A stretch of DNA of 64,000 nucleotides from an uncultured Methanosarcinaceae archaeon. GTDB taxonomy: Archaea; Halobacteriota; Methanosarcinia; Methanosarcinales; Methanosarcinaceae. The notes under the pieces were generated by a model. That model searched no databases. It was not told the DNA's origin and was given only the letters and a program-made list of their open reading frames with translations. The stretch is from positions 1 through 64,000 of the forward strand of contig CAWJYV010000001.1 in assembly GCA_963847185.1 (NCBI GenBank), in the 5' to 3' direction. Shown here in pieces: positions 6,453 to 63,083 of this stretch. The position numbers were made by a program, and so were the translations under genes. Numbering within the stretch: the stretch's first letter is position 1; the number at the start of each line of letters is the position of its first letter.

Positions 6453-7648
6453 TTACTTTATTTTGGATGAAACTTTAGCTAACATAGCAGGGTCCTGTTG
6501 CAGGTATGTGAGTAAATCTGATATCAGCATTTCTTTCTCCTGTGCTGCTTCCTGTGTAACCGGCATCCCACAATCACAATACCTCATTCCCGACGGGATT
6601 GGCATACTACACCTGGCACACCTATTAATCTTGTTACCTTCCTGATCCTGAACGACTCTTATACCATAGGAGGCGAGTACGGCATTATCAATTTCTGGGT
6701 TTGACAAATGTATATACGTTTCCGTTTGGTTGCTAGACCCCGCCCAGCCAAATTGCTTCTTAAGCTGTTGTTCAGTCATTGTATTGGCGAGTCTAGTTGC
6801 CTGAGAATGGCGGAGTAAATGACAATATACATTCTTCTTAATCCCTGCTTTCTTGGCCGCCTTCTTCAACAACAGATTCATTGAAATAACCCTTAATGGC
6901 GTGTGCACACGGGGTTCGTCCTTAGCCTGCTTCTTTTTATTCTTACTATGACTGCTATCATTATACTCTCTAGCTGTAGTGAATAAGGGAGCTTGGGGTC
7001 AGTTGCATTCGGGTGATCAACAAGCCACTGCTTAAGGTACACCTGGTACTTATGCAACAATACCTGTCTCTTTCCTGTCTTCCCATTAAGTGTTATATGG
7101 AATCCGTAGGGGTGGTCTTTCACATCGCCTATTTTGCAGTTTTGAATTTCTCCAACTCTTGCTCCCAGCTCATAAATAATGGCTACCAATGCTTTATCCC
7201 GGATACCAATACAACACGCAATTATTTTCTCAACTTCTTCCTCACTCAGGATATCTTCCGACTCTAATTTTTTACCTTCAACTCTAGCAAATCCGAACTT
7301 TGCAAGCTCAATTAGCTCTTTATTATCAGTGCTTGCACCATATCCTTTTAGAAACCTTTGAAACGTAATTTTGTACTGCATCTTACTTGTAGCACTGGCA
7401 GGCTTCCCATTTTTCTTTGTCCAATCATTGATTGCATCTTGAATATCATTAACATCCTTCTTGGTCAACTTGTCCAGGTCGGTCTTAGTATGTGTCAACA
7501 GGAACCGCAAAAAATGCTCATTATTGCGAACGGTAGCTTCCTTCAAACCACTACGATTCAGATCCTTTAGATATTCAAGGACAATGCTCTGGTTCTGTTC
7601 GGAGATATTATTCTCAATACAAAAGTTAACTATATTATGCGTATCCAT
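6453..7648 (-). pseudogene. Tyrosine integrase, frameshifted copy
   Basis: ORFs 6893-7756 and 6453-6908 together match the intact copy at 61369-62565. One base is missing in the G-run near 6995 (DPQAPLF becomes DPKLPYS). Confidence 0.9.
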
Positions 7649-8157
7649 AGAAGCTTTCTCCAATTTATAATTATACAACGCATAATATATATAAGATTGG
7701 ATAATGTATATTATTACATGGTTTTTGGGAAGGAAATGATTAATATTACTAAACATTTGTAAATAAATTACTTTTAGGAGTAGAGGGTTTTGGGGGTGGT
7801 AGGCAAAATAACCTTTACAATAAAATTTAGTTCATAGAGTTTTAAGTAAGCTAGCTTCCATATGAAATTTAATAAGCGTGTGACGTCGTGCCAGTCTAAA
7901 CACTTGTAGAAGAGATTGTCCTCGGGATATGTAGAATAGACTGTCCCCCGCACCTGTTCTTAATTTATACCTGTGACTGTAGTCGGGCAGCTCGGAGACA
8001 TAATAATATAGGAAGTAAAGCAAGTCAAGTAGTACAAGATATTCTAAAATGTATGAAAAGCAGTATATTATTTCTCGACATAACATACTACTATATTCTA
8101 ATATGTGTTATACAACTAAAATTTATGTAAATGGGTTTATAGTTTAATATGTTGACA

Positions 8158-16932: not shown

Positions 16933-17069
16933 CAAGCAACGAGATACGTTCGCGCCAAATCCTTCTTGCCTTTTTCAACTCTCCCAGAGACTCCACACTT
17001 AATTAAAAGCAGCTTCCTTACCTCTTTTATCATGAAAGTAGTGCAGGTGTTACAGATTATTAAAAGGCG

Positions 17070-17640
17070 CCAGCCTTCCACAGATCCCAGAAACCTCTCC
17101 GATAACTCAGATCTGAGTCATCGAGGAAACGTAGTCGTAAGGCTATAAAAAAGTGATGATATAGAGTATCCATTTTACTAGTTTTAATTATGTTGTGGAA
17201 CCTGTAGGGATATATTTAGTCCATTCTTACCCAAGCGATAGCCGTGGCCTTTGTACGTGGCTTCTAGGTATATGTGCGTGGAGATGAAGGAATAAACGTA
17301 CTGCGTCAGCCTCCCACAAATATCCCAGAATCAGAGCCGCTACACGGGATTACTTTTAATTATGCTTGTGAAACCTTCTAGGATATTTGGTCCATCCTTA
17401 TCCTAAACGAGGGTCTTAGCCTTTGTACGTGGCTTCTAAGTATATGTGCGTGGAAATGAGGGATGGACTTACCGCGAGCCTTCCATATATCCCAGAAGCT
17501 TGCAGAGCGCTTTATTGTCATTAAATCCCTTAATTACGGGGATTCCAGATTTTGGGAGATATATAAGTGCCTAAGAAAAGAATTTACGCTTGGTTGGGAG
17601 GTTTAGCGTGGCTTCTGGGATATGTATGTGGAAGGCTCAT
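17070..17640 (+). repeat. Cluster of three fold-back repeat units (types A, B, C)
   Basis: Each unit starts AGCCTTCCA..ATCCCAGAA and ends GTGGCTTCTRGG..ATGT..GTGGA. Unit A carries the palindrome at 17099-17124. Confidence 0.85.
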
Positions 17641-25611: not shown

Positions 25612-25764
25612 TATGTATAATTAGAGAATGCTATCCATATATAATTTTGGAAATAGAAAATTCATGGCTATAGATTAAGACTTAAAATGTCACTCTTCCA
25701 TTGATTTTATATTGTAGGACTTAACGGTTGAACTGAGAAATCAATTAAAGTTGCGCTGGCGCAC

Positions 25765-26450
25765 TCCACATCTCCCAGAAACCTCTCCGCTAACTCAAAT
25801 CTGGGATATCGAGGAAACATAGTTGGATGGCTATAAAGAAAGTGATGACAAAGAGTATTCATTTTACTCGTTTTAATTGCGTTGTGGAGCTGTCCGGGAT
25901 ATATTGGTCCATCTAGCTACGAGCGATAGCCTTGGCCTTTGTACGTGGCTTCTAGGTATATGTGCTTAAGGATAGATGTGCCAGCCAGCCTTCCACATAT
26001 CCCCGAATCAGAGCCGCTACACGGGATTACTCTTTTTTCACTTCTTATGTAGTCTGTAGGGATATATTGGTCCATCCGGTTACGAGCGATAGCCCTGGCC
26101 TTTGTACATGGCTTCTAGGTATATGTGCGTGGTTAGTATGTTTCTTTAGGATATCCCAGAAACCTCTCCGATAACTCAGATCTGAGTCATCGAGGAAACA
26201 GAGTCGGAAAGCTATAAAAAAGTGATGATATAGAGTAGTCATTTTTCCATTTCACATGTAGTGTCAGGGATATGTTTAGTCCATCTGGCTACGAGCGATG
26301 GCCCTGGCCTTTTAGATTAGCTTCTAAGTATATGTGCGTGGAGGATTCGGGATAGATGCACTACACCACCTTCATCACATCCCATAAATCTCTCCGATAA
26401 CTCAGATCTGAGTTATCGGTAAACGTTATCATTTGGCTACAAAAAAGTGC
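25765..26450 (+). repeat. Cluster of fold-back repeat units (A, B, A, partial A)
   Basis: Same arms as 17070-17640. Palindrome copies at 25787 (degenerate), 26168 and 26394 (perfect 26 bp). Confidence 0.85.
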
Positions 26451-27994: not shown

Positions 27995-28328
27995 GATAGT
28001 GGGGAAAAAGTTCGTCGACTGCTCTTTTGGCAGCAGAGGAACAGAAACTGGACAACAACTCTGGGAAAAATTAGAGAAGAAAGAGATTGAAAAGTGATGA
28101 CTGATCACTGGAGGGCATATGAAGAGTTTCTTCCAGAAAAGGTTCATACTCAATCCAAAGCAGAAACGTATACTGTTGAAGGATATAACAGCATATTAAG
28201 GCACTTTCTGGCAAGATTGAGGCGAAAGACAAAGTGTTATACTAAGAGTATTGAAATGCTATAGTACCCGGTTATTCTCTTAATGAAATAAATAAATAAT
28301 GAGTAAACTATATTTAATTAACAATGCC
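27995..28328 (+). mobile_element. IS1-family fragment (InsB-like 3' half)
   Basis: MTDHWRAY...VEGYNSILRHFLARLRRKTKCY with stop codons; right end ...AACAATGCC. Homologous to 42355-42691. Confidence 0.8.
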
Positions 28329-28732
28329 ATAAATAGTTAATAAACTTTTTGTAAAAATTCAAATATTTAACAATCTGAACAGTTAGTATCCATGCTTTTT
28401 AGTTTAAGCAAGAGAGAACTCTGACAATATTGCAGAAAAGAAATTCAGTGCCTCTATTTTTTTACTTTAATAAGTCTCTTGATATTGATAAAAATAATTG
28501 TATGGAATTTGATTTCTTTTTCCAAAAATGGTTCAAAATTTTTGAAAACTAATAAATGATAAGAATGATTTATTCTACTTATTTTATACAAACATAAGTA
28601 TTATAATTTTGTAATAAAAACCAACGATATTAGCTGCGCATCTTTGTTTTTGAAAATCAGTCTTTTGCTTACGATTCTCAGTAACTGACACAACTAACTT
28701 ACACTTTTAAGGAAAATAAAGGGAGAAAACAA

Positions 28733-38037: not shown

Positions 38038-38689
38038 TTATTTTACCCCCATGTTTAGTATATTATTTTAGATTTTTTATTGTGCTTTTTCTTATTCTTA
38101 TTTTCTCTTATTTTCTACTCTTTTTTCTACTCTTTTTGCGTAAGGAGAAGACAAAACTTTAAGATTAGAGTATGAAGTGGGCATACGGCCCTCTAATCAA
38201 ATTTTTTATCTATTCCTCAAATATATAATTACTTCTGGAAATCGTATTTGGAAAATATTCTATCACTTCCTTCCGTCTGGAGAGAACAGATTCAAGTTTA
38301 ACTGCCAGAAGTACAAGTTAATATATAATTCTCGAATATATAAAAATAATAGAATATTTTTTACTTAATATTAATAGTCTTTTAAAAACTGAGCACATCT
38401 GACGTTAAAAAAGCGAAGTTACTTTTATACTAATTGGCAGATTTAAATCCTTTAAGATATCCGCTAAAATGAGAAGTTTAGTCCATAATTCAAACTTTTA
38501 CACAAAAAAAAGACCTCAACAATATAAATAAGGCTTTTACGAGACGAATAAATCCCTTTTTCGAATTAAAGCCAATTTAAGGGGTTAAAATACACATATT
38601 TAGTAAAATAAGTTGTATTACTTCTTCATCACTCTTTCGAGATCTGAACTCCATGACTTTATCATAAAGGAAGTAAAGATTACGGGTTT

Positions 38690-38800
38690 AAAGTATTCAT
38701 TTTACTCGTTTTAATTGCGTCGTCGAGCCGCTCGGGATATATTTTTGTCTATTTGACTATAAGCGATAGCTTTGGACATTGTACATAGCTTCTCAGCTAG
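38690..38800 (+). repeat. Partial type A repeat (right half)
   Basis: AGTATTCATTTTACTCGTTTTAATTGCG...GGGATATA...AAGCGATAGC...TTGTACATAGCTTCTC. Confidence 0.7.
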
Positions 38801-38936
38801 AGTACGGACCAAGATTATCATATAAAAATAAACATTTTAAAAAGATTTATAATGTATAAATAACTTTAAAGAGTAAATATAAAAGCATTTTTAAGCTGAT
38901 AAACTATCCATAAAAATAGAAATATCGAGGGTTATC

Positions 38937-39454: not shown

Positions 39455-39832
39455 GTGGAGCCTTTTGGGATATATCTTGGTCTATTTGGCTACAAGCGAT
39501 AACTGTGGCCTTTGTAAGTGGCTTTTAGATATATGTGTGTCTTCAGGATAGATATGCTGCAATATATCCCAGAAACCTCTCCGATAACTCAGATCTGAGT
39601 CATCGGTAAACATAGTCGGAAGGCTTTAAAGAAATGCTGACATAGAGTATTCATTTTACTCGTTTCAATTGCTTTGTGGAATCTTCAGGGATATATTGGT
39701 CCATCTGGATACGAGCGGTATCCTTGGCCATTGTACGTGGCTTCTAGGCGTATGTGCGTGGAGGCTTCGCAAGATACTCGACAGTGCCAGCCTTCCATAT
39801 ATCCCAGAAACCTCTCCGATAACTCAGATCTG
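39455..39832 (+). repeat. Cluster of fold-back repeat units (right half, A, partial A)
   Basis: Palindrome copies at 39581-39606 and 39816-39832; junction hairpin at about 39739-39812. Confidence 0.85.
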
Positions 39833-42219: not shown

Positions 42220-42691
42220 TCAAGTAAATAAAATGAAATTTGGTCAGGAGCTAGAGGAACTGAAAAGCGAAAATGAGATCTCTATTGTTGAAATGGATGA
42301 GATGCACACTTACATCGGTAACAAAAAAAATATTGCTGGATCTGGATTGCTGTTGATAGAGTTGGGAAAAAGTTCATCAACTGCTCTTTTGGCAGCAGAG
42401 GGACGGAAACTGGACAAAAACTCTGGGAAAAGTTAAAGGAAAAAGAGATTGGAAAAGTGATGACTGATCACTGGAGAGCATATGCAGAGTTTATTCCAGA
42501 AAAAATTCATACTCAATCAAAAGCAGAAACTTATACTGTTGAAGGATATAACAGCATATTAAGGCACTTTCTAGCAAGATTGAGGCGAAAGACAAAGTGT
42601 TATACTAAGAGTCTTGAAATGCTAAAGTACTCGGTTATTCTCTTAATAAAATACAGAAATAATGAGTTAACTATATTTAGGTAACAATGTC
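42220..42691 (+). mobile_element. IS1-family fragment (5'-truncated)
   Basis: EMDEMHTYIGNKK, an A-run, then TDHWRAY...VEGYNSILRHFLARLRRKTKCY. Confidence 0.8.
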
Positions 42692-42764
42692 AAATTTTTA
42701 TAGGGAAAAGAAACTATATATGAGATACTGTATAAAAAATATGATAAAGATGAAGAGAAATAAG

Positions 42765-45371: not shown

Positions 45372-45829
45372 GGACCATATAAATGGGTTGCAAATTTCTG
45401 GGACCACTATCCCAGAATAAGCAGCCTTGAACCTAAAAGTATTAATTACTTGAATGTTTGGGGTATAATATCCTATTTTATGATATATCAAAAGAAGTAG
45501 AACCAGACAAGGTTTGAATCTGGATCTTAAGTATTTATATCAACCCTAGTTCAGGATATTATGAAAAGTAGTAGCTTGAGAGTTAAATTTCCTACAAAAC
45601 AAGAAAAGCACTCCCAGTCTGGACTTCTGATATTTTTGTGATTAAAAGGACAGCCATCCAGCTTCTTGCTGAGTTTATGGGAAGGTAAAAAATAAGGCTT
45701 GTAGGTGTAGGGGTTTCAAGACTAAGAGAAAGAGATGCAAGGCAGACTTTGATTACGGATTTTTAAAGTATTTTCGGGATCATTCAATTCCAGACATTGG
45801 ATTTGGATATAACTGCAAGGAAGTCAATT

Positions 45830-45909
45830 TACGAGCGCTAGCGCCTATTACAGTGGCTTCTAGATAGGCCTACAAGATGAAGTTGGGAAAAAAAGCAAAA
45901 AAATTATTC
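45830..45909 (+). repeat. ~80-bp direct repeat, copy 2
   Basis: Matches 41498-41577 and contains the GTGGCTTCTAG core. Confidence 0.8.
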
Positions 45910-46314
45910 TTCAGATTCTGACTCAGCTAATTGGTATTTTTGTACTTCTATGATGGTCTTTAACCAGTCGTTTAAAAAAGCATTTAATTCCTCCTTTAGC
46001 TTTGGTCGATACTTACCCGGTTCCGGGTAGACCTCTTGGAATATCCCCAAATAGTCGTTTTGAAAAGTCATTGCCTCGGCTTCTTTATGGTCCGGGTGAA
46101 TCCATACTTGCATATCCGGGTCTGCCATGACGTCGCCGTTTTGCTTCCCGTTGTGAGCTAGGCTAATAGTGTTATTTAATAAATTGTCCACATGTAGGTC
46201 CATAAGCCCAGGACTTTGAAATCTCATGTAAGAAGCTTGCATTACCCCGTTTTCATCAATAATCCCAAGGGTTTGTAACCTTGTAAAAATATTCTTGTAT
46301 ATTTTTCGTTGCAT
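45904..46314 (-). CDS. DUF1249-like protein
   Basis: ISLAH..KQNGDVMADPDMQV...AEAMTFQND...LNAFLNDWL. Confidence 0.7.
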   Translation of the reverse strand: MQRKIYKNIFTRLQTLGIIDENGVMQASYMRFQSPGLMDLHVDNLLNNTISLAHNGKQNGDVMADPDMQVWIHPDHKEAEAMTFQNDYLGIFQEVYPEPGKYRPKLKEELNAFLNDWLKTIIEVQKYQLAESESEE

Positions 46315-46735
46315 TTTCTAAATTCTCCTATTTTGTGGCGCATGTTATCGTTTTCGCCAATTTTTAAAATACATCGGGGAGATATTTATATTTATTTGAG
46401 AATCAGACCATATTTTTCAATTTATATTCAAGGAAAATTGGGATCTTACTTGAGATTTCCCTATTCTTACATTCTCATGACCATTTTCAAAGATCAAATT
46501 ATACGAGGAATATGTAGGTACAAGATGAAAAGTGAAAACCGATGAATACAAAAAACGGAATCAAGAAACACAACGTTGGACTCAAGATATAAATACATCT
46601 TGAAAGAATGTATATTATTGTACTAAGTAAGATCGTAAATAGTTACGATTGTCTAAACTTAAGCAGTACCTCGGCGGAGGCATGTGTCTCTGATGTGTAA
46701 CAGACTGCTTTTCTAAGAATCGAGGAGGAACTGCA

Positions 46736-46927
46736 ATGGTAGACGCAATAAATATTGCTTTCACCCCAGAATATGATCCGCTTATAGAGATAATAGACGA
46801 AGCTTGTGATGCTTGTAGAATTTCACGTTCAGGGCTCATTAGATCGATTTTGTGTGACATTTTCGAGTTCACACCAGAACGTCCACGAAAACATTACAAC
46901 TCACACAAGAAAAGAGCAAAACAGTGA
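46736..46927 (+). CDS. Ribbon-helix-helix/CopG-like protein
   Basis: INIAF...IIDEAC...ISRSGLIRSIL; RBS GAGGAGG. Confidence 0.7.
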   Translation: MVDAINIAFTPEYDPLIEIIDEACDACRISRSGLIRSILCDIFEFTPERPRKHYNSHKKRAKQ

Positions 46928-47105
46928 ATATTTTATGCTTTCGCAATGCTGTGATGTTTAATGAGACCACGGGAGAGGTTCCAATTCCCCGTGAGCCCAC
47001 AACAAAAGATATGGTAAGAGCCTTTAATCAATAATTATATACTTTATATTGATATTTATATCTTTTGTTGGTACAAATCAGGGTTCATGATAATGGTTTC
47101 GTTTA

Positions 47106-48947
47106 ATGTCATCGGATAAAATAAAGTTAAACGGTGATAAAATGAAAACAAACGAAAATATGGATGTTAATGTTGAACCGATGATTGAAAATATTTCAAG
47201 CGAACACAGAAATATTAAAATAAAAACATCTAATGAAGACTTGGTTTGTATAATATCATATAAAAATAATAAATGGTTTACTCAGTTTAAATATAAACTT
47301 GAATTTCTCCCCCCAATACCCAGCAAAGCACCATTATATGAAGTAAACAATGTGAGAGATGGTCAATTAATTGATTCATTAATTGTAGGTAAAATTGTCG
47401 AAGATAAAAGTATAGCCAAAGAGATTCTACAAGAAGTTCAAAAAACTGCGTTTCAATTATCTAGTCAAATTAATCATTTAACATTTGCTCCTGAGAAGAG
47501 ACATAAAGAGAAGCCCGAAGAGGCAGAAAAACTGGATATAAAGGATCTTCTTATAGAACAATACGGTGAGACTGTTTTTGATAAAGCTCAACAATTGATT
47601 AATGATGGACATGCACAAAAATTTATTGTTGAAAAGCATTGTTCTACCTATGCAGGTGTGAGTGATAGGATAAGTTGGGCCCTATCCTGTGTTTTTGCAG
47701 TAACCCATATCTCGTCGTCGGTTGGTGGAGTACATCTTAAATTATCTGGTCCGGCAGGTAATGGTAAAAATACTCTGGTTACAAATTTTACTAATCTAAC
47801 AATACCAGAAGTATGGAGAATGACAACACCGTCCGGAAAAAACATGTTTTATAATGACTGGATAAAGCCGAATATGGTCGTTATTATTGATGAGTTTGAT
47901 AATGGCGATAAAGATATAATAAAGACATTGAAACTTTCTACCAGTCGGTTTCAGGATAAAACAATGTTAGATACGGTTATTTTGTTTGCCGCCAAAACAA
48001 AAATAATGCCAGAACGGATTGCATTTATTATAATGAGTGTATTACCGCTAGAAAATGAGGAAATGATTCAGAGATATCTTACAGTGGATGTGCCAAACAA
48101 TATCAAATATTTAACAGCTATAAATGAAAAACAGAAAGGCAGAGAGCATAATCTTCCTACTATAAATAATGCTCCGGATTTTGATACTCAAGTTTGCAGG
48201 TGCATATATCATATTCTTAACCAAGGAGTATATGACATCCGCATTCCATTCGCACCAGTAATTGAATGGCAAAATGTAGAACGTACAAGAAACTGGGAGT
48301 TATTTGCAGATATAATTAGGTGTTCGGCATTTTACAATATTCCTAATAGAGAGTATTTTCATAAGCCAGGGGATGAAGAAACCGGAGTTTTTCTTGCAAG
48401 TTACGAAGATTATGAAAATGCCGTTGAAATATATGATAAGTTGGCAGACAATAATGTTACGAAATTATCTACCAACGAACTTAAACTCATAGATACTCTC
48501 ATCCAAGAAAGGAAGCGAGATATTGAATCAAAGCTGAATAGAGATAGTGCAGAGGCAATTAAAAATATCAATCGTGAAGTTAAACCACTAGATATGGAGG
48601 AAATTACACAATTTGGTGTAATGGATATAGCTGGATCTATGGATATAATAGGACTGGCTAAGGCTACTGGAATAAGCGATAAAACCATTGACTCTATGCT
48701 ACATGGTAAACAAAATACCGAAGGACTTACAGGAAGAATAGTTGGGTTACATAGCGAAAAAGTTGCTATACAGGGCACCAATCACATTGTACATAAAAGA
48801 AAAATCTGGTATGACGGACCAGATAATATTGTAACTAATGTTTCAAAGGTTCCTCGGGATAAATGTGATGCAGAGACCATTAGATGTAAGCAGAATTGGA
48901 TAGAAGCTTGGCAGCTTGAAGATGCAAAATGGAATAGATGTTCCTGA
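47106..48947 (+). CDS. P-loop (AAA+-like) ATPase, putative replication protein/helicase of the element
   Basis: Walker A GPAGNGKN, Walker B VIIDEFD, possible arginine finger (QRY), C-terminal HTH-like LAKATGISDKTI. Confidence 0.75.
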   Translation: MSSDKIKLNGDKMKTNENMDVNVEPMIENISSEHRNIKIKTSNEDLVCIISYKNNKWFTQFKYKLEFLPPIPSKAPLYEVNNVRDGQLIDSLIVGKIVEDKSIAKEILQEVQKTAFQLSSQINHLTFAPEKRHKEKPEEAEKLDIKDLLIEQYGETVFDKAQQLINDGHAQKFIVEKHCSTYAGVSDRISWALSCVFAVTHISSSVGGVHLKLSGPAGNGKNTLVTNFTNLTIPEVWRMTTPSGKNMFYNDWIKPNMVVIIDEFDNGDKDIIKTLKLSTSRFQDKTMLDTVILFAAKTKIMPERIAFIIMSVLPLENEEMIQRYLTVDVPNNIKYLTAINEKQKGREHNLPTINNAPDFDTQVCRCIYHILNQGVYDIRIPFAPVIEWQNVERTRNWELFADIIRCSAFYNIPNREYFHKPGDEETGVFLASYEDYENAVEIYDKLADNNVTKLSTNELKLIDTLIQERKRDIESKLNRDSAEAIKNINREVKPLDMEEITQFGVMDIAGSMDIIGLAKATGISDKTIDSMLHGKQNTEGLTGRIVGLHSEKVAIQGTNHIVHKRKIWYDGPDNIVTNVSKVPRDKCDAETIRCKQNWIEAWQLEDAKWNRCS

Positions 48948-49335
48948 ACCCAATTTTAGGATCAGGTTTAGGTGCCTTTTTGGACCTTTTCAGGAACATC
49001 TATTAAGGCTCCAAATATTGCTTTTTCATTTTTAAAAATAGATGTTCCTGAAATGGCTTCAGGAGAATAAAACGGGCTCCAATTATTGAAACGAGAGCTG
49101 CTCCTGAAACTTTTGCGAAATATGCAGGAACAGAAAAAAAAATAAAAAATTTTTCTTCTAAATTTTGATCGTTCAAAAAAATATTTTTTATTCTTTTATA
49201 CTTTTATTTTTTTTCAGGAATAGCTATTCTATATATATATTATAATTAAATAATATATAATGGGAGCAGGACTAGATGGTCCTGAAACATTGATTCAGGA
49301 GCAATCAGGAATAGTCAGGAGAATCAGGATCAAGT
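48933..49335. promoter_or_regulatory. Candidate replication origin with iterons and an AT-rich core
   Basis: AATAGATGTTCCTGAA at 48933 and 49037, inverted at 48989; about ten further TCAGGA/TCCTGA-type motifs around an AT-rich stretch at 49130-49260. Confidence 0.5.
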
Positions 49336-49507
49336 TTAGGCGCCATTCTAATAATTAACTCTTAGCCATAGGTTTTTGTAAAATTCAATAAAATTCTAAG
49401 CCTCATTAGCAAAGTCCTATAAATTACCTTAGCTCGTTAAATAAGCCTGGCCATGAAGCTCACAGACCTGATGGCACAGCTATTAGAAGGCATAAATGCG
49501 AAACTTA

Positions 49508-52141
49508 TTATAACTTTTCTTCTGTGGTGAATTTTATGATGAATTTCGTCCCTTTATCTCTTATTACTTCTATCGTGCCATTTAGTTGGTCTACAAGGAT
49601 GTTTACGAGCTGTAAACCAAGGGTGTCGGGACTTCTAAAATCAATTTTTTCAGGGATGCCAACTCCATCATCTGAGACTATAAGAGTGTATTCAGTACTT
49701 TTTTCTTTATTGTCTTTTAGCTTATCTTCAGCTTTTTCACTGAAGAGTTTAATTTGAACTTCTCCGGTTTCCCTATTTAGAAATGCATATTTTAAAGAAT
49801 TCGAAACAAGCTCATTAACAATTATCCCTAAAGGGACTGCAATATCCATATCAAAGAAAACATTCTCTTCCATGTCAATGTTTAAGCTAACAGCTGTATT
49901 TCCAAGACTGTATGTGTGAAGAAGGTTTTCGACGAGCTTCTCAAGGTATAGTGAGAAATTCAGTGCTTCTTCTCCTTCGCCTTCATGCAGTTCCTCATGG
50001 ATAAGGGCAATGGATAATACCCTGTCATGACTTTCCCTAAAGGCTTCAAGGACTTCTAAGTCATTAATACATTCTCTGTCCTTGAACTTTCCAGCCTGAA
50101 GATCAAGAAGGGACGAGATGACTTGAAGGTTGTTTTTGATCCTGTGATGAATTTCCTTTTTACGGGCAGCTTCGATTTTCAAAAGGGTATTTTCTGCTTT
50201 TTTCCTATCAGTGATGTCCCTGGTAATAGCTGAGATGGCTACTAGTTTTCCATACGAATCAAAAACCGGAGAAAGAGTTATTGAGACATTGATTATTTTG
50301 TCATCTTTTCTTAATCGTAACGTTTCATAGTGCTTGATTTTATCTCTTTGTTTAACTCGTTCAACTAATCTTTGAATTTCCCCTTTAATATTATCCGGTT
50401 CAAGTATTGACACTTTTTTTCCAAGAATTTCTCCAGCTGAATAACCATAAATCTGCTCTGCACCCTTATTCCAGCTGGTAATTATGCAGTCAAGAGATAA
50501 AGTTATAATAGCATCATTTGACGATTCCACAGCATCTGCCAGTGTCTTGATTTTTTCTTCTGTTCTTTTACGTTCAGTAATATCCTGAGCCACTCCTCTC
50601 ACTCGAATAGGAGTGTTGTTCTCATCAAAAATAACTTCGGCTTTTGCATGAACTATGCGCTCTTCTCCACTAGCTAAAACAACCCTATAATCTATGTCAT
50701 AGGTCTTTCCGTTAAAAGCATCTTTAATGACATTAGCCAAATAGTCTCGATCGTTGGGGTGTACAGTACTTAAAGCGTCATTGTAGGATAAAGACTTTAG
50801 AGGGGTAATCCCAAGAATGCGATAAAGCTCATCAGACCAGTAAATTTTATCATTTACAATGTCCCAATCCCAATTTCCAACGTGTGCCATTTTTTGAGCT
50901 TCAGCAAGACGTCTCTCACTTTCTTTCAACGAATTGTAAGATTTCTCAAGCTCTACTGTCCGTTCTTTAACTTTTGCTTCCAAGCTATCATATGCTTTTT
51001 TAAGGGCATTTTCTACTTTTTTACGCTCTGTAATATCGATGAAAGCGGAAATTGACCCAGTTGGGTTTCCATCCTCATCAAGCAAGGGACTAGCGTTTCC
51101 CAATATATGTCTCACTGTGCCATCGAGATAGGCAATATCAAATTCATAGTTGCGTATTTCTTTGCCTGCTGCAGATAATTGAACAGGCAACTCTTCAGGT
51201 TGGAGCTCAACCCCATCTCTTAACATTTCAAATGTCTCAGGTCTCTCCCCTTCTGGGGCAGATTTGGATGCGTTTGCACCTTCAGGAATTCTGAGCCATT
51301 CATAGGATAGCCTATTCCCAGTTATATGAAGGGCTTTAGGATCATGTGTTATCCACACGGCTGCAGGGACTGCATCCAGTAACACTGCCAATTCATTAGA
51401 ATGAGCCCTTTCACGCTCTTCGCTTTCTTTAAGCGCTTCCTCTGATTTCTTACGCTCTGTAATATCAATTTGCACGCCATCCCAGATCGTTCGACCGTCT
51501 GATAGCCTACGAGGGTGGGAGCGTAATCGCATCCAGCGTATCTGACCATCTGGACGTCTCAGCGGTAGATCAATCTCAAAATCGGAGAGTTCGTATGCAC
51601 TGCGTGCCTCGGCTTCAACGAGCTTTTCGAAATAATCTGGTAGTATTTGTCGATGCAGTGTACCCGGATCTCGCAGTACATCTAGAGGGCTAACACCGTT
51701 AAGCTTCTTAATACCTGCACTGCAGTACAGGAAACGGACACTACCATCGGATTCATGGGTATATTGATAGACCGCACTATCTGGCAGGTTGTCGCCTAAG
51801 AGACGAAGCCGTTCCTCACTCTCACGAAGCCTTTCTTCAAGCTCCTTTTGGTCACTTATATCGAACCCATAAATGTTTACACATTCTTCTTCAGACAATG
51901 GGTGAAAAGATACAATATAGACTCTTTTATCTACTCTAACTTCAATTTTCTTAGGGCTATTACTCGAAATTACCCTTTGAACAAAATCTCTGACATTTGA
52001 AGGCAATATTTCTCCAACTCTCACCCCCCAACTATGTAACAAGGGCTCACCTGCCACATTTGAATAAAGAATTGTCCCATCCTTCCCTGCGCTCAGCACT
52101 GGGTTTGGATTCTGTTCAGGAAATTTTTCCATTCGTTTCAT
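49508..52141 (-). CDS. PAS-domain sensor histidine kinase (HisKA_2/HATPase)
   Basis: Several PAS/PAC repeats; EIHHRIKNNLQ, NELVSNSLKYAF, DDGVG, TLGLQLV. Confidence 0.95.
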   Translation of the reverse strand: MKRMEKFPEQNPNPVLSAGKDGTILYSNVAGEPLLHSWGVRVGEILPSNVRDFVQRVISSNSPKKIEVRVDKRVYIVSFHPLSEEECVNIYGFDISDQKELEERLRESEERLRLLGDNLPDSAVYQYTHESDGSVRFLYCSAGIKKLNGVSPLDVLRDPGTLHRQILPDYFEKLVEAEARSAYELSDFEIDLPLRRPDGQIRWMRLRSHPRRLSDGRTIWDGVQIDITERKKSEEALKESEERERAHSNELAVLLDAVPAAVWITHDPKALHITGNRLSYEWLRIPEGANASKSAPEGERPETFEMLRDGVELQPEELPVQLSAAGKEIRNYEFDIAYLDGTVRHILGNASPLLDEDGNPTGSISAFIDITERKKVENALKKAYDSLEAKVKERTVELEKSYNSLKESERRLAEAQKMAHVGNWDWDIVNDKIYWSDELYRILGITPLKSLSYNDALSTVHPNDRDYLANVIKDAFNGKTYDIDYRVVLASGEERIVHAKAEVIFDENNTPIRVRGVAQDITERKRTEEKIKTLADAVESSNDAIITLSLDCIITSWNKGAEQIYGYSAGEILGKKVSILEPDNIKGEIQRLVERVKQRDKIKHYETLRLRKDDKIINVSITLSPVFDSYGKLVAISAITRDITDRKKAENTLLKIEAARKKEIHHRIKNNLQVISSLLDLQAGKFKDRECINDLEVLEAFRESHDRVLSIALIHEELHEGEGEEALNFSLYLEKLVENLLHTYSLGNTAVSLNIDMEENVFFDMDIAVPLGIIVNELVSNSLKYAFLNRETGEVQIKLFSEKAEDKLKDNKEKSTEYTLIVSDDGVGIPEKIDFRSPDTLGLQLVNILVDQLNGTIEVIRDKGTKFIIKFTTEEKL

Positions 52142-52473
52142 TTTCCCTCTACCCAGATATCTTTGTTAATGAAATACACTAATCTTAATGGTCAAGAAAG
52201 GTTAATATCTTAACTTTATATTTTTTTATCGGTTATAACTCATAAAAATAATCTTCTCAAATACATTTTTTCGGCAGTGGTCACTGTAAAAGGACTGTTG
52301 GAGTCAGTGACTCTCGCTAGAGTGGATAGGATAATTACTAACGAACCCTGATTTCGGGCTTATAAGAAGGCTCGATTACCCTATACAAATCCCGAAATAA
52401 TATTAAAAAACGACATCAATTAACACTCTCAACGAACCCATATTTTTTATATTTTACGTTGTAATATATTTTC

Positions 52474-52818
52474 ATGCTGAACTCAATAGTAATAGAACTC
52501 GATGATGAATACATCGACAACGACCTCATGTATTTGAGCGAAGAGGGACTTTTTGGGCTTACTCAGTTAGGTACTCTCTATGGCATAGCCCTGTTATTAG
52601 CAATGAAGAAGATGGACGAGGGCTACACGCCTTTAGAACCAGTTATATATCACAATTATCCCGAGGACGCACTCATTTCACCAGCGAATGGTGGCATGAC
52701 ACTAACGCGTGTTGGTATCGACTGGACCGTACAATACATGGCAGATCACAAATTTAATCAGTTCGTTTATGATGTAGCTCGAAAAATCTATGAGAAGAAC
52801 ATAAAAGAAAATATCTAA
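52474..52818 (+). CDS. Hypothetical protein
   Basis: 114-aa ORF with plausible composition; no motif recognised. Confidence 0.55.
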   Translation: MLNSIVIELDDEYIDNDLMYLSEEGLFGLTQLGTLYGIALLLAMKKMDEGYTPLEPVIYHNYPEDALISPANGGMTLTRVGIDWTVQYMADHKFNQFVYDVARKIYEKNIKENI

Positions 52819-53325
52819 ACATTTATCAGTCTTACTTAATCATTTCTTTTTTAAAAGTGTCTCACTTCCAAACAGGACTATAACTATATTTGGTATATAC
52901 TATACTACTCCTTATATACTCGCCTAAACTTTTTTAGATTTAAGCTAAGTGTTCAGGATAAATTAGGAAGTGACGGTCAAATTTGCTTCCACTTCTTAAC
53001 AGACAGATCGAGAAACGTATAGAATTTCTTCTATTTTTGCACAAACGATATCAGTAGGCACAATTATCGGCAATACGTATAAATATGATACGTTTCTGAT
53101 GGCATAGCTATTAGAAGGCTCTATTACCTATACAAATCCCGAACTTCTTTCTTCCTTCTTTAAAAACACATCACTTCTTGGCTCTGTAGAAAATCGATTT
53201 AATTCAACTACAAGAGACTGAAATCAGATCAATGAAAGTGTATCAGGTTATTCAGTTCAAATTAATGAAGATTCGCTGTTTCAGAGGATTTCTACAGAGC
53301 CAAAAAATGAGTTGAAAATAAATAA

Positions 53326-53562
53326 CTATAAAAACTCAAACCTTAGCTGCTCTGCCATCTCACGAAAAATGTTTCCATTGGTAGTCGTAACAAAAATTCC
53401 TTTCTCGAGTCTAATAAGTTGTCTGTCCTCCAACAATTCTAAATATCTATTGACAATGTTGAAATTCACTTTCGCTGCATATATTATCTGCGTTTTGCTG
53501 GCCCCATTCACCGCTATTTTTAAAATTTCTTCTGCAATGTCAACCCTGCTCCTTTGCACCAT
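53326..53562 (-). CDS. Small archaeal winged-helix regulator
   Basis: RSRVDIAEEIL...ASKTQIIYAAKVNF...YLELL...FVTTTNG. Confidence 0.85.
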   Translation of the reverse strand: MVQRSRVDIAEEILKIAVNGASKTQIIYAAKVNFNIVNRYLELLEDRQLIRLEKGIFVTTTNGNIFREMAEQLRFEFL

Positions 53563-53989
53563 ACAACCCCTCTTTGAAAGCTTAAAAAAGTTTTAAAAAA
53601 CATTCATTAAAAGATACTATGATGGACATTTATGCTCATTATTTGGCCAAATATATTCTACTCATTCTATATAACGGTGTTTATTTTATATAATAAACTA
53701 GATTTTCAAATAATAAAAATCCCAAATCGTAAATGGGATGATGATTCTCTACTTAAATATACTAAAATATATACTTTCACACGACTAAAATCACAAACAA
53801 AATAGGTTTTCTACAAAGCCCACCTCTTTTCATCTTTCCTTAAAATGGAGCAACGTGATCTAAAATCTCATTTTTGCATAAACCGCATCAGTTGGCTCAA
53901 TTTAAGACAATACGTATAAATATGATACGTTTTTATTAATATTGTCGATAAATTGACAAACAAGTTAATTAAAGAGGAGATTTTAGAAA

Positions 53990-54445
53990 ATGGTTGCACC
54001 AAAAGTTGAAGTTGAGAAAAGCAAGCACAAAAGTTGAGACACCAGTGCAGAACAAAGTAGATGAATATTTCCAGCAGAATGAGAAGTTCTTTAATACGGG
54101 CGACATAAACGCAAAAAAAGCATTTTTCATGCTCGGGCAATATTGCCGAAAAGTCGGGTTTGAGTGCGAGGAAAAGAAAATTGCTGAGAAGCGGCACAGA
54201 GAGCAAGTTTCAAGCAAGATTGGCACGTGAAATATAGTAACAACATGACTTATAGAGCCTTTACGATAATAATGAAACTGCTGGATAGCGCCGCTTTAAA
54301 GTGCAACCCGCAACTGTTTTATAAATGTCAGTGGTGCGTGCAAGGAACTGATGATCAATAGTAATCTTGTTAGTGACAAGAAAGCTCTAAGCACCGAAGA
54401 TGGAAATATGGCTTTCTCCTCGGACTCTACCAGCAATTCAAATAA
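53990..54445 (+). pseudogene. Multiply frameshifted gene resembling the Cas8b (TM1802/Csh1) C-terminal domain (Cas11-like)
   Basis: RBS GAGGAG; pieces KKAFFMLGQYCRKV / NMTYRAF..IMKLLD..ALKC / LSTEDGNMAFS(L)GLYQQFK*. Confidence 0.5.
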
Positions 54446-55733
54446 GTATTTTTTTTGCTCTTTTTCTTGCTTGAATGATTCATTGCTATTTATTGATGCA
54501 CGGTCACCAACCTTTTTACTATTTTTGGGATATTATTAGATTTTAAAAGTTCATCAGGATCTCCTCTACTAATTCTTTTACTTTTTTTGTTTCTCCTGTC
54601 TTGGGATCAGTTATTTCTTTTTTCATTGCATCATTACATGAATCAGTAGCCGTAATCATAGAGTTCTTTTGTAAACTTCTTATTTTCAAATTATTATCAA
54701 CATTAAGTGCGGAAGAATCACAATTCTCCGCATTCGGTTTCTTAACTAAAGAAGAAATATTCGATTTATTCTTTCCATAATATTTGTCCCATGTAGTTTT
54801 AAGGTCGGTTTCGTGTACATTATCTAAAAATTCCATCCAACGAAAGATCCACTCTGAACTATTTAATCGGCTTACATATGTTCTGAACACTTCTTCACAG
54901 TTAATTAAGTTATTAATAAACTCAGCATAAAGAGTCATCCAGTACAAATTATGTAAGGAAATAAGTATTCCTGAAGTAGTTTTCATATCCCATAAGTATT
55001 CAGGTTTCTCTAACTGTTTACAAATTGGGCAAATACATTCAAATGAACGAGAGTCCTTATTCTTCTGGCTTCCATTCATCTTCATACCAGGACCATAAAA
55101 ATCAAGGTGAAACATAAACTTACGGAGTGTTCTTCCAAAAGATGCAGATGACGAGTCAAAGTATATTTGAGTGTTAGTATATCTATTTGCATATGCAATT
55201 AATGGTAGTAGATATGGAGAGGATAGACCTAATAAATGGAAAGGTTTACTCACACTATATTCTATCGCGAAACCAAGTCTTAATGGCATTAAATATTTCA
55301 TCTCTGAGCTGGTAGACAGAGAAAATCCATCGTATTCATAATTGTGATTATCTGTTGTTACTTCATACCAGCGTTCCATATCCTCATAACAGTCACCATG
55401 AATACAGTTAAACAACTTAAAGTCTGAATTATAAGCATCATCTATATGTTTATCTTTATACTCAAACATTGATTGAGCATTTTTCGCAGACTCTTTTAGA
55501 CAATCTTCAAAAATCTTCTTATCTTTAAATTGACTCCATTTTCTCGGTGTTGGAATATCAAGAGTCATTCCAACATCACAAACATCCATTTGCCATTGAA
55601 TTACTTTTTCCCACGTAAGTTTTTTATGAATATCTGGATCTTTCAATTCACCCATTTTAGATTTCAAGATTTGATAACCACCGGAGTCACCAAAAAACAA
55701 AACATCGTTTCTAATTTCATTTCTGCCTTTTAC

Positions 55734-57376
55734 CTTGACTTTGTCACATTTCCTTTTCACGTCTACCGTGAAGTATAATTTTATTCCTATATATTTGAGA
55801 TCGTGAAACAAATAACAAGTGACTTTATCAAGTCAAACACTATCTCTGTAGAAAAATACATTTCTGAAACGAATCTTGAATTCTATTTTCAAACTAAAAC
55901 TCGTTGTGTCGCTTCAACGTGTATTGATTACCTTAATGGTTTGATGCTTCTTCCATATCGGAAAAATTTGAGAAAAATGGCAATTTATTGTTGTAAATGC
56001 TCTAACAACGAATCACTCAGCCATTTCCTCTCAACTTCTCCTTGGCTTTCTGCAGATCTCCTCAAATCTGTTCGAACAAAAGCCATTCAAACTATAGGCA
56101 AAAATGGTGTTCTTATACTTGACGAATCAAGCATAAAAAAATCTGGAAATAGTTCTGTTGGAGTTTCTCATCAGTATTGTGGCAACCTTGGAAAAAAGGA
56201 CAATTGTCAGGTTGGTGTATTCCTTGCTTATTTTAAAAAGAAGAGAAGAATGTTGATTGATGAGAGATTATATCTCCCACAAAAATGGATTGATGATAAG
56301 GTACGTTGTTTAAAGGCTAAAGTTCCTCTTGAAGAGATTAAATTCCGAACCAAGCATGAGCTTGGTCTTGAAATGATTGATAATGCAATAGAAGAAGGTA
56401 TTCCTTTTTCCTATGTTACAATGGATGGATTCTACGGTGAAAATCCGGAGTTGTTGACAGAACTTGAAATTAGAGGTTTAACTTTTGTTGCAGACATAGC
56501 TGTCGATACTCTTGTTTATATTGAGGAACCAGTTGCTGAGATACCTGCGAAAAAGGGAATAAGAGGAAGAAAACCCACTATCCCCAAGGTTTTGAATACA
56601 TTATCAACAAGAGTAGATTCTCTTTCCAATTCAGTTGAGGGATGGGAACTTATCAATGTTAGAAAAACGGAAAGAGGGTATAAAAAAGTCTATTTTAAGG
56701 CTATAAAAGTTTGGAGACGTCAGAATAAATTACCTTGTGAGAAGCCGGTATGGCTTCTTATAAGTAAAGATTCAGAATCAAATGAAATTAAATATTCACT
56801 ATGTAACGCCTCTGAAGATACATCATTCGATAAACTTGCAAAAATGCAGAGTTCAAGGTATTGGATTGAGAGAGCATTTCAAGATGCGAAAGGAGACTGT
56901 GGAATGGCAGAATACATGGTGAGAAATTGGAATGCGTGGCACCATCATATGGCATTAGTAATGCTTGCAATGCTTATTTTACTCTCCTATCAGAAAAAAT
57001 TCAACAAAATGTATAAGATGTCAATTCCTGGAGTTTTATGGATACTGAAGTACCATAATCCATTGAAAAGAATCGATGCTCGGGAAATTGCAGGAATCTT
57101 AAATCAAGATAATGAGTTGAGAAGGAAAGCAAGGGTTAGCAGATTAAGAAGTTCATAATAATTTTCTGATTGGAATAAAATGGATTCGTGTTCCGACGAC
57201 TGGTAAGTATACAATTTTGACAGGAAAAATTTATGACAGTAGAAATAATGGAGATAGTGATCAAGAAAAAAATAGAAGAAACAAGAATAGGAAAGGGAAA
57301 AGATTAAAGATACAGCAAATTTGAATGGAAATAAGTTGTGATGATTGTAAAAATGAGTTAATTTGACAAAGTCAAG
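55734..57376 (+). mobile_element. IS701-family insertion sequence
   Basis: TIRs CTTGACTTTGTCACATT and AATTTGACAAAGTCAAG; 4-bp target duplication TTAC. Confidence 0.9.
55803..57158 (+). CDS. IS701-family transposase
   Basis: ILDESSIKKSG..SVGV.HQYCGNLGKKDNCQVGV, DGFYG, RYWIERAFQDAK..CGM. Confidence 0.95.
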   Translation: MKQITSDFIKSNTISVEKYISETNLEFYFQTKTRCVASTCIDYLNGLMLLPYRKNLRKMAIYCCKCSNNESLSHFLSTSPWLSADLLKSVRTKAIQTIGKNGVLILDESSIKKSGNSSVGVSHQYCGNLGKKDNCQVGVFLAYFKKKRRMLIDERLYLPQKWIDDKVRCLKAKVPLEEIKFRTKHELGLEMIDNAIEEGIPFSYVTMDGFYGENPELLTELEIRGLTFVADIAVDTLVYIEEPVAEIPAKKGIRGRKPTIPKVLNTLSTRVDSLSNSVEGWELINVRKTERGYKKVYFKAIKVWRRQNKLPCEKPVWLLISKDSESNEIKYSLCNASEDTSFDKLAKMQSSRYWIERAFQDAKGDCGMAEYMVRNWNAWHHHMALVMLAMLILLSYQKKFNKMYKMSIPGVLWILKYHNPLKRIDAREIAGILNQDNELRRKARVSRLRSS

Positions 57377-57708
57377 TTACATTATCTATTCCATAGTAAG
57401 CAGATACTAGCATTGCATTATAAGAAAAAAATGGATTATCCGACCACCAACTACACTGTTTATCTTTGCCTAGAATAGAGACACTAGATGGATAAAAGTA
57501 ATCAATATCTTCAGGTGTAATCGTAACCGGAATATAAATTAATTTATTTTCTTTAAATGTGTTTACCATGTTGTAACCCCTTAATTTCCTGATCTTTAAC
57601 GGACTTTGCGAAATTTAAAAAAAGAAATGAAGAGATAGATTTTTGTTAAAAATAAAAAATTTAAAGTTTTGGGTTGTATTTTTTGGTTTTTAAAACCTTT
57701 TCAGGATA

Positions 57709-60886: not shown

Positions 60887-61030
60887 TTAGGCCACTTCAC
60901 TTGCAGCTTCGAGAACAACTTCGACCATTGCCTTTTCAATTGATGATCCATGCTTCAGTACATACTCAATACTCTCAGGATATTGTTTGATAATATCCTG
61001 TGCCGTTGTAACCTTCTTTTGTAACCTCAT
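60887..61030 (-). CDS. 47-aa small protein downstream of the integrase
   Basis: MRLQKKVTTAQDIIKQYPESIEYVLKHGSSIEKAMVEVVLEAASEVA; a homologous truncated start MRSQKNITTAQDIVKRYPESIE lies at 6115-6050. Confidence 0.6.
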   Translation of the reverse strand: MRLQKKVTTAQDIIKQYPESIEYVLKHGSSIEKAMVEVVLEAASEVA

Positions 61031-61368
61031 ATAAACTATAAATTATTGATTCATTCCTAATGTAAGATAAGATCGTAGTGATTAGATGCCTTCTTTTATA
61101 AAACAAAATTACATTGAGGCTTTAAAACAATACGTATTTATAGGATTCGACTTGCTCAAGATTTGATCTATCCCAAAGACAAAACAAGAATCGAAATAAC
61201 TAAAGGGCACTGGATTTTCCAGGTCATATAACCTTAGTAGTCTCCTGTTAGATTAGTGCGTGGCTTCTAATAAGATATGCACCCAATAGGGGTTTTAGAG
61301 AAAAGTAGAGAGAATAACGATAATCACAATATGTATTAATAGGAATCGCAAAAGTTGAGCAAAAAAAA

Positions 61369-62565
61369 TTACTTTATTTTGGATGAAACTTTAGCCAGTA
61401 AGGTTGGATCTTGTTGTAAATATGTGAGTAAATCTGATATTAGCATTTCCTTATCCTGTGCTGCTTCCTGTGTGACCGGCATCCCACAATCACAATATCT
61501 CATTCCTGACGGGATCGGCATACTGCACCTGGCACATCTATTAATCTTGTTTCCTTCCTTATCCTGAACAACTCTTATCCCGTAAGATGCAAGTACAGCA
61601 TTATCAATTTCGGGATTCGACAAATGTATATACGTTTCCGTTTGGCTGCTAGATCCAGCCCATCCAAATTGCTTCTTAAGCTGTTGTTCAGTCATTGTAT
61701 TGGCGAGTCTAGTTGCCTGAGAATGGCGGAGTAAATGACAATATACGTTCTTTTTAATCCCAGCTTTCTTGGCTGCCTTTTTTAACAACAGATTCATTGA
61801 TATTGTTCTTAGTGGCGTGTGCACACGCGGTTCGTCCTTAGCTTGTTTCTGTTTATTCTTACTATAACTTCTATTAGTATACTCTCTAGCTGTAGTGAAT
61901 AATGGAGCTTGGGGATCATTTGCATTTGGATGATCAACAAGCCACTGCTTAAGATACACCTGGTACTTATGCAACAACACCTGTCTCTTCCCAGTTTTAC
62001 CATTAAGTGTTATATGGAACCCATAGGGATGATCTTTAACATCGCCTATTTTACAGTTTTGGATTTCCCCAACTCTTGCTCCTAACTCATAAATTATAGC
62101 TACCAATGCTTTATCCCGGATGCCAATACAACATGCAATTATTTTCTCAACTTCTTCCTCACTAAGGATATCTTCCGACTCTAATTTTTTACCTTCTACT
62201 CTAGCAAACCCGAACTTTGCAAGCTCAATTAGCTCTTTATTATCAGTGCTTGCACCATATCCTTTCAGGAACCTTTGAAACGTAATTTTGTACTGCATCT
62301 TACTTGTCGGGCTGGCAGGATTCCCATTTTTCTTTGTCCAATCATTGATTGCGTCTTGGATATCATTAACATCCTTCTTGGTCAACTTGTCCAGGTCGGT
62401 CTTAGTATGTGTCAACAGGAACCGCAAAAAATGCTCATTGTTTCTAATGGTAGCTTCCTTCAAACCACTACGATTCAGGTCCTTTAGATACTCAAGAACA
62501 ATGCTCTGGTTATGTTCGGAAATATTATTCTCAATACAAAAGTTAACTATATTATGCGTATCCAT
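61369..62565 (-). CDS. Tyrosine recombinase/integrase with a C-terminal zinc ribbon (intact)
   Basis: GARVGEI (R), GKTG (K), HLLRH (HxxR), FGW (W), ETYIH (Y); CARC...CDCG. Probable start MDTHN at 62565. Confidence 0.95.
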   Translation of the reverse strand: MDTHNIVNFCIENNISEHNQSIVLEYLKDLNRSGLKEATIRNNEHFLRFLLTHTKTDLDKLTKKDVNDIQDAINDWTKKNGNPASPTSKMQYKITFQRFLKGYGASTDNKELIELAKFGFARVEGKKLESEDILSEEEVEKIIACCIGIRDKALVAIIYELGARVGEIQNCKIGDVKDHPYGFHITLNGKTGKRQVLLHKYQVYLKQWLVDHPNANDPQAPLFTTAREYTNRSYSKNKQKQAKDEPRVHTPLRTISMNLLLKKAAKKAGIKKNVYCHLLRHSQATRLANTMTEQQLKKQFGWAGSSSQTETYIHLSNPEIDNAVLASYGIRVVQDKEGNKINRCARCSMPIPSGMRYCDCGMPVTQEAAQDKEMLISDLLTYLQQDPTLLAKVSSKIK

Positions 62566-63083
62566 AGAAACTTTCTCCAATTTATAATTATACAACGCAT
62601 AATATATATAAGATTGGATAATGTATATTATTAACTGGTTTTTGGGAAGGAAATGATTAATATTACTAAACATTTGTAAATAAATTACTTTTAGGAGTAG
62701 AAGGTTTTGGGGGTGGTAGGCAAAATAACCTTTACAATAAAATTTAGTTTATAGAGTTTTAAGTAAGCTAGCTTCCATATGAAATTTAATAAGCGTGTGA
62801 CGTGGTGCCAGTCTAAACACTTGTAGAAGAGATTGTCCGCGGGATATGTAGAAGACTGTCCCCGCACCTGTTATTAATTTATACCCCTGTGACTGTAGTC
62901 GGGCAGCTCGGAAATAATAATAATAAGAAGGGAAAATATAAGCAAACTGTTCGTATAAAATATATACTACAAAAGTTTCAAAAAAGGAATGATGTTTATT
63001 ATCGGATGGATAATAGGTCTATACCACAAAACATTATTGAGCACCGGAATTTGTAATAAGTTATATACTACAAAATGTTGATA

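Follow-up and report, generated by a model that had tools for sequence, protein, structure and literature searches.

An uninterrupted site beside a sensor kinase gene marks a local rearrangement in a mobile-element-rich region of an uncultured Methanosarcinaceae archaeon

The first 64,000 nucleotides of contig CAWJYV010000001.1 (assembly GCA_963847185.1), hereafter called the window, come from an uncultured Methanosarcinaceae archaeon and contain a gene for a large sensor histidine kinase, the relatives of which are Methanosarcina proteins. This gene is enclosed by two short sequences, L and R, and is the only open reading frame (ORF) with a family match between them. R lies in the conserved 330-bp region from which the kinase and a small gene, orf114, diverge. 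A third sequence, I, is found further to the right and is an uninterrupted site: it unites a part of L with a part of R, without the kinase in between. The positions of these features are collected in Table 1. The window is rich in mobile DNA, with two integrase modules, several DDE transposases and many repeat families.

I consists exactly of the left part of L and the right part of R, joined at the heptamer AGAAGGC. An intact site and its two separated halves had been described in an earlier note on this DNA, and both their positions and their geometry are confirmed: L matches the left side of I at 23 of 24 positions, and R matches the right side at 30 of 31, with one extra C in R. Such matches are far beyond chance. 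With up to three mismatches allowed, a search of the window for the left half yields two sites, L and I, and no match at all was obtained in 100 shuffles; the right half has I as its sole match, R being missed due to the 1-nt indel. The 15-mer at the right end, TATACAAATCCCGAA, is present twice in the window for 0.27 expected. Besides the L and R orthologues, no additional copy of the site was detected in the window or in the four loci fetched for comparison. The heptamer alone is present at chance frequency (8 copies in the window, 6.85 expected).

R is more than a half site. Its left side (52348-52371) aligns in register with the left side of I at 16 of 24 positions, including CTGAT and TAT.AGAAGGC, and the homology between I and R extends beyond CCCGAA: after a variable spacer, TTAAAAACACATCA (53160-53173) matches 52403-52418. 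The right side of L is unrelated to that of I. L and R share the junction repeat at 7/7 positions (10/11 including the flank), and beyond this core their left arms match at 9-10 of 20 positions (null P about 0.03). Compared with L and R of its own genome, I shows two substitutions and one indel.

Both junctions of the kinase segment thus display a direct repeat that resembles a target duplication: AGAAGGC at 7/7, or, as 8-mers, TAGAAGGC at L (49484-49491) and AAGAAGGC at R (52364-52371), with seven of eight positions matching. The inner ends of the segment (49492-49503 and the reverse complement of 52352-52363) agree at 9/12 positions, with an empirical P of about 0.0025 over three offsets and a length chosen post hoc. 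Extra copies of these ends in the window are at chance level (36 matches for 34.8 expected, 24 for 26.5), and the ends of the DDE_5 insertion sequence at 55731-57379 are unlike those of the kinase segment. I itself is an imperfect palindrome, GCATAGCTATTAGA / AGGC / TCTATTACCTATAC (53102-53133), with 14-nt arms complementary at 11/14 positions and a 4-nt spacer. The same dyad score was reached in 18 of 2000 shuffles of I and, with the same geometry, at 17 of the about 64,000 window positions. The dyad axis lies 1.5-2 nt to the right of the centre of AGAAGGC; for the inverted ends of the kinase segment, the 8-mer is the centre. The palindrome, inverted-end and left-arm statistics are all post hoc, obtained after many features had been viewed (P 0.0025-0.03), and are discounted here.

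A genome scan of the GTDB species representatives, anchored on an alignment of the orf114 family, returned three related loci. Two of them, L001 and L003, are contigs of one Methanosarcinales metagenome-assembled genome; L002 belongs to a metagenome-assembled chromosome of 3.69 Mb. In all three, the kinase adjoins orf114 between orthologous L and R blocks. Kinase boundaries at other places in relatives had been named in advance as an argument against the split-site idea, and the boundaries fall at the same two blocks in each case. Kinase-less relatives with a rejoined site were also sought; neither a kinase-less locus nor an uninterrupted site is present in any of the three. The kinase orthologues measure 730 aa in L002 and 725 aa in L003. 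In L001 (7016-9663), the orthologue is split into ORFs of 344 and 489 aa, probably as a pseudogene or by a sequencing frameshift. A stretch of the window kinase gene, 51040-51814 (~150 codons, one PAS region), has a G+C content of 0.44-0.49 in comparison with about 0.36 nearby. This region has no counterpart in L002 and L003, which suggests the gain or loss of a domain.

Only in the window genome do L and R have the same 7-bp core. The pairs in the relatives are AGAAGTC/ATAAGGC in L001 (5/7), AGAAGGC/CGAGGGC in L002 (5/7) and AGAAGGC/CGAAGGC in L003 (6/7); these mismatches are compatible with an old event or with chance. The right half of I is as long as in L002 and L003; the window and L001 have the longer form, with the extra C. 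Across the four-genome alignment, scored in 40-nt windows, invariant columns reach up to 97% at L and about 82% at R, while the kinase proteins are 53-89% identical among the four genomes. L and R are conserved non-coding blocks, and the kinase has held its place since before the four lineages diverged.

The surroundings of I are different. I forms the exact left end of an 837-bp block. Neither the kinase nor orf114 is contained in this block, which is absent from the two relatives covering the place (L001 and L002); the L003 contig ends before it. L001 is colinear with window positions 45807-53088 at 90.7% identity, its similarity resumes at 53871, and L002 behaves likewise. Downstream of the block, the identity between the window and L001 is 76%, vs. 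90.7% upstream, and the comparison as a whole is a mosaic of 70-99% tracts. L001 and L002 each have one copy of a 63-bp segment; the window has two, placed exactly around the unique DNA. The two window copies are 84% identical, with the last 25 nt identical, and the second copy is nearer to the one of L002 than the first is (by count on the junction alignment).

Most of the block is a transposon-like mini-element, flanked by the 8-mers CACTTCTT and CACCTCTT (7/8 match). Its only cargo is a short gene for a winged-helix protein of the HTH_45 family. The end motif of the element occurs four times for 0.53 expected, and a third, inward copy is located at 53288-53301. Two Methanosarcina barkeri plasmids contain a match, at about 75% identity, to the 122-bp piece that the first two end motifs delimit; the plasmid match is limited to 113 nt of the mini-element (window 53184-53297; 3001-3113 in the fetched plasmid locus L004) and overlaps, on the plasmid, the 3' end of an annotated asnB gene. 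This piece may represent a small family similar to miniature inverted-repeat transposable elements (MITEs). Without the mini-element, the block amounts to 188 bp: I, about 77 bp of unmatched DNA and the second 63-bp copy.

The explanation we favour, tentatively and at a little short of an even chance, is that I is a kinase-less joint that arose across a short direct repeat, within a copy of the kinase unit that had been duplicated or imported and has since decayed. The 188-bp block looks like a condensed, diverged copy of the segment made up of L, the kinase, R, orf114 and the promoter-like segment, without both genes and with the conserved non-coding pieces retained in their original order; the mini-element with the winged-helix gene would be a later insertion into it. 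A copy of the unit would first have been placed beside the original, either by duplication or by import from a co-resident related element. This copy could then have lost the kinase through recombination or template switching across the direct repeat [T/A]AGAAGGC bordering the gene, and orf114 through a second deletion. The order of these events, as well as their direction (loss rather than gain), is inferred.

Several observations fit this course. The block is either old or imported from a diverged co-resident element, since I differs from L and R, has the length of the L002 type and is accompanied by a second 63-bp copy nearer to that of L002. For the same reason, I is neither a recent derivative of the adjacent L and R nor a target that stayed in place. 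The homology between I and L ends sharply at CTGATGG because the block begins, on its left, where the 63-bp segment meets I, and the homology between I and R, which continues for about 30 nt to the right, fits a copy by descent. The restriction of the joint to a derived patch speaks for loss, as does the absence of orf114 from this patch, with no flanking repeat at this second gap. A 7-bp repeat present by chance between flanks of 60 nt and 230 nt is not unlikely. As in deletions between short repeats or template switching, the joint lies inside a short repeat found in both parental sequences, the block is composed of short nearby pieces in their original order, and the derived state occurs in one lineage only (both scorable relatives are without the block of I).

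Other observations fit this explanation less well. A patch formed by deletion between short repeats would match its local templates; here, the match is partial. Two substitutions and an indel set I apart from L and R, the 63-bp copies agree at 84%, and about 77 of the 188 bp have no significant match to the unit. Nothing similar that could have served as donor was found in the window or in the fetched loci, and no microhomology is seen where the 63-bp segment meets I. Moreover, a deletion at a chance microhomology leaves three coincidences, each noticed post hoc and of modest significance. One is the palindrome of I, more symmetrical than chance (11/14). Another is that the two substitutions by which I departs from L and R each increase the symmetry, the L/R arm pairs of the four genomes scoring 6-9/14. 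The third is the 9/12 agreement of the inverted ends flush with the 8-mer repeat (P about 0.0025).

These same coincidences would fit another reading, in which I is a genuine unoccupied target, a 32-bp imperfect palindrome into which the 2.87-kb kinase module inserted long ago, with L and R as the junctions. The agent would have been a site-specific recombinase or a transposase acting in trans and duplicating 7-8 bp; I would derive from a related element lineage in which the kinase never arrived or was precisely excised, and part of which recombined into this locus at a later time. The direct repeat stands exactly at both junctions (7/7, or 7/8 as 8-mers), the inner ends are imperfect inverted repeats flush with it, and I is more symmetrical than any L/R arm pair, as if the halves had drifted after being split. 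The residual similarity of the left arms of L and R beyond the core and the plasmid- or virus-like character of the region, with its integrases and transposases, point in the same direction. We nevertheless consider this possible but on balance doubtful. None of the three relatives has an empty site, the segment contains no recombinase gene (the nearest integrase gene lies about 8 kb from I), and the window offers no further copies of the ends. The dyad axis and the inverted ends do not share a centre, the former being displaced by 1.5-2 nt from the middle of the repeat and the latter lying symmetrically about the 8-mer, the resemblance to an integrase-side core is within background, and the segment has its own long upstream region, unlike a cassette. 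All the statistics on which it draws are post hoc (P 0.0025-0.03). An extension of the same idea, quite unlikely in our opinion, is that the palindrome is a dedicated docking site in Methanosarcina plasmid- or virus-derived islands, where modules insert and precisely excise by means of a trans-acting recombinase. L and R could then be junctions and I an empty site, with self-expressed modules and no adjacent integrase, unlike integrons.

The three sites could also be copies of a cis-acting element, such as the operator of a dimeric protein, an RNA hairpin or a terminator, kept similar by function; L would be one arm, R and I the whole element, and the split appearance incidental. The conservation peaks at L and R, set against the lower identity of the kinase proteins, would agree with such a function, and so would the dyad symmetry of I, the alignment of R to I over its full length and the presence of a winged-helix gene 180 bp from I. 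An 8-bp hairpin is predicted in L and in the left side of I, and the differences between the copies fall in the loop or change a G-U to an A-U pair. However, the match is 23/24 between L and the left side of I but 16/24 for the left side of R, and the right side of L is unrelated to that of I; therefore, L and R together rebuild I better than independent copies would. No Rfam match was obtained at the gathering threshold in the window or with E up to 1 in 49300-53400, none of the 16 predicted pairs (consensus fold of the L block, plus strand) shows a compensatory double change, and just three copies occur in 64 kb. A cis-acting element is thus unlikely to account for the three sites.

Finally, the site might be the 5' end of a small gene (M-A-Q-L-L-E-G-S-I-T-Y-T-N-P-E...) that is split by the kinase and unsplit in I. 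L begins with ATG, and I continues in frame into the frame of R, which is open over 46 codons in L002 and L003, with an in-frame 3-nt indel between them and a stop codon overlapping the start of orf114. An exhaustive search of 1.84 billion representative proteins yielded no credible relative: its two matches, in proteins of 1002 and 293 aa, are confined to short repeated stretches. Furthermore, I has a TAG at codon 3, and the frame of R lacks an ATG in L002 and L003 and is truncated in both L001 and the window. We consider a split small gene highly improbable and reject it for want of a protein relative. A 19-codon ORF on the plus strand (MAQLLEGINAKLIITFLL + W/C/Y; 49471-49530), antisense to the 3' end of the kinase, is present in all four genomes; its few substitutions are all non-synonymous, on which basis it is probably non-coding.

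The geometry invites a comparison with known systems. Lambda-type tyrosine recombinases act on sites (attB, attL and attR) with a 7-bp overlap. The uninterrupted site, the two hybrid junctions with a 7-bp core and the imperfect inverted arms of I recall this arrangement. In contrast to it, no recombinase lies in or beside the kinase segment, no empty site exists in the three relatives, the core is not identical in these relatives, the dyad is offset and the similarity to the integrase-side repeat is within background. The geometry of the attL/attR-like footprint proposed in the earlier note holds, and the proposal is partly supported; what speaks against it is that I is neither a resident neighbouring site nor a recent derivative of L and R, that the core is a perfect repeat in the window only and that the kinase segment carries no recombinase. 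No tRNA gene was detected in the window, hence no att site of the tRNA type. Duplication followed by deletion, which had been named as the explanation that would undo the proposal, accounts for the data at least as well; a site-specific insertion is a possible alternative, given the palindromic target and the weak inverted repeats at the ends of the segment.

Mobile insertion cassettes and passenger MITE-like elements carry short inverted ends and a target duplication, without a transposase. The kinase segment, with its flanking 7-8-bp repeat and imperfect inverted ends of 12 bp, has the same layout, but these ends are very short (9/12), and neither a second copy of them nor a matching transposase was found in the window. 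A clearer case is only 40 bp away: the winged-helix mini-element, with ends matching at 18/21 and flanking 8-mers at 7/8. Integron cassettes with attC sites resemble the locus in having an imperfect palindrome between genes and an alternation of sites and genes (site, gene, site, gene, site). Here, on the contrary, the genes differ in orientation and have their own upstream regions, there are three sites, one of them partial, and no integron-type integrase, attI or common promoter is adjacent; the integrase genes are at least 8 kb away. Among the titles and abstract openings listed for mobile elements and integrases of Methanosarcina, none describes this element. I marks a local rearrangement rather than a proven integrase docking site. 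As a rearrangement footprint, the feature is of a kind already known.

The locus is a well-resolved case of remodelling in a mobile-element-rich methanogen island, comprising a duplicated segment with a putative promoter, a small transposon-like unit carrying a passenger and a gene-less, condensed copy of a neighbouring unit. Sensor kinases are very numerous in Methanosarcina. If the palindrome were a reusable insertion site, it would offer a testable route by which such kinases move between elements. The near-invariant blocks of 60-80 nt at both ends of the kinase gene are of interest whatever the answer on mobility.

Table 1. Coordinates of the features at the kinase locus and of the integrase-side repeat core
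Feature	Position	Strand	Remarks
orf613, Walker-A protein	47106-48947	+	No Pfam match; left of L
Conserved L block	49445-49530		Includes the kinase stop codon; highest conservation in the 3.4-kb alignment of four genomes
L	49468-49491	+	Left arm, followed by the core (CTGATGGCACAGCTATT-AGAAGGC); 17 bp downstream of the kinase stop codon
Left inner end of the kinase segment, ATAAATGCGAAA	49492-49503	+	Candidate terminal inverted repeat
Sensor histidine kinase	49508-52141	-	877 aa; several PAS domains, HisKA_2, HATPase_c
R	52348-52396	+	Right half (52365-52396) plus diverged left arm (52348-52364); within the kinase/orf114 divergent region
Right inner end of the kinase segment, TTTCGGGCTTAT	52352-52363	+	Candidate inverted-repeat partner; flush with the 8-mer AAGAAGGC
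orf114	52474-52818	+	Conserved hypothetical, no family match; adjoins the kinase in all related loci
63-bp segment, first copy	53033-53095	+	TATA-like box; putative promoter role
I	53096-53143	+	Uninterrupted 48-bp site; imperfect palindrome at 53102-53133
837-bp block	53096-53932		Window only; I, about 36 bp, winged-helix mini-element, about 41 bp, second 63-bp copy
Transposon-like mini-element	53180-53820		21-bp inverted ends (53180-53200 and 53800-53820), 18/21
Winged-helix gene (HTH_45)	53326-53562	-	78 aa; only cargo of the mini-element
63-bp segment, second copy	53870-53932		Closes the 837-bp block
Broken homologue of a 140-149-aa gene	53994-54539	+	The gene follows the 63-bp segment in L001 and L002
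21-mer repeat core	61260-61280	+	By an integrase gene (61369-62673, minus strand); second copy at 6345-6365

The earlier note had also seen a resemblance between the reverse complement of the site and the repeat core next to the integrase gene, and had proposed that the site may pinpoint the crossover core of that repeat system. The local alignment score is 12, which is within background: among about 4,260 tiles, 11 unrelated ones score 13-14 and 22 score 12. The proposal is not accepted for this reason. In the window, the 8-mer G[GC]CTTC[TC]A is overrepresented (25 copies for about 4 expected); it belongs to repeat families near 17, 26, 39 and 64 kb. L and I carry one such arm; a tie of these sites to the repeat families could not be made on one shared arm only. 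Among the repeats, units of ~250 bp are found at 17069-17460, 25757-26410, 38662-38816 and 39472-39832. They comprise three sub-repeats, including a perfect hairpin (CCGATAACTCAGATCTGAGTTATCGG), and their ends carry G[GC]CTTC[TC]A in inverted orientation, which gives them a MITE-like look.

The two integrase modules (6049-7294 and 60964-62211) are 88-93% identical, 54.9 kb apart and in the same orientation, and a frameshift divides the first integrase in two (6453-6908 and 6893-7756). A member of a family of 181-208-aa ORFs and a repeat of 77-114 nt (8864, 11406, 34143, 63825) follow each module. The two modules look like tandem or nested integrated elements.

On the left of L, orf613 is shared by the window and L001; its look-alikes carry PF27228 (MTBMA_p00010_2nd) and are mostly from viral records, which is taken as a lead only. 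A tblastn search of orf613 against plasmids and phages gave no match, nor did the comparison of window positions 47000-54500 with annotated plasmids. In L002, a UvrD-type helicase (5366-7174) occupies the place of orf613, and the right border of this module swap falls within 50 bp of L: L002 DNA is again similar to the window from about 48 bp left of L onwards. On the right of the 837-bp block, the broken gene at 53994-54539 is split in the window into ORFs of 78 and 62 aa.

Further repeats are spread over the window. A direct repeat of 241 bp (28089-28329 and 42452-42692) has copies that are 93% identical and 14.4 kb apart, the second ending at the start of a PKD/GDSL gene. The insertion sequence at 55731-57379 encodes a DDE_5 transposase (55803-57158) between 20-bp inverted ends that are 90% complementary, and a 249-bp piece of its left end is almost identical in L002 (1170-1417, 90%). 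Lastly, a 545-aa ORF without family match at 3600-5237 contains 30-nt periodic repeats in at least 21 copies.

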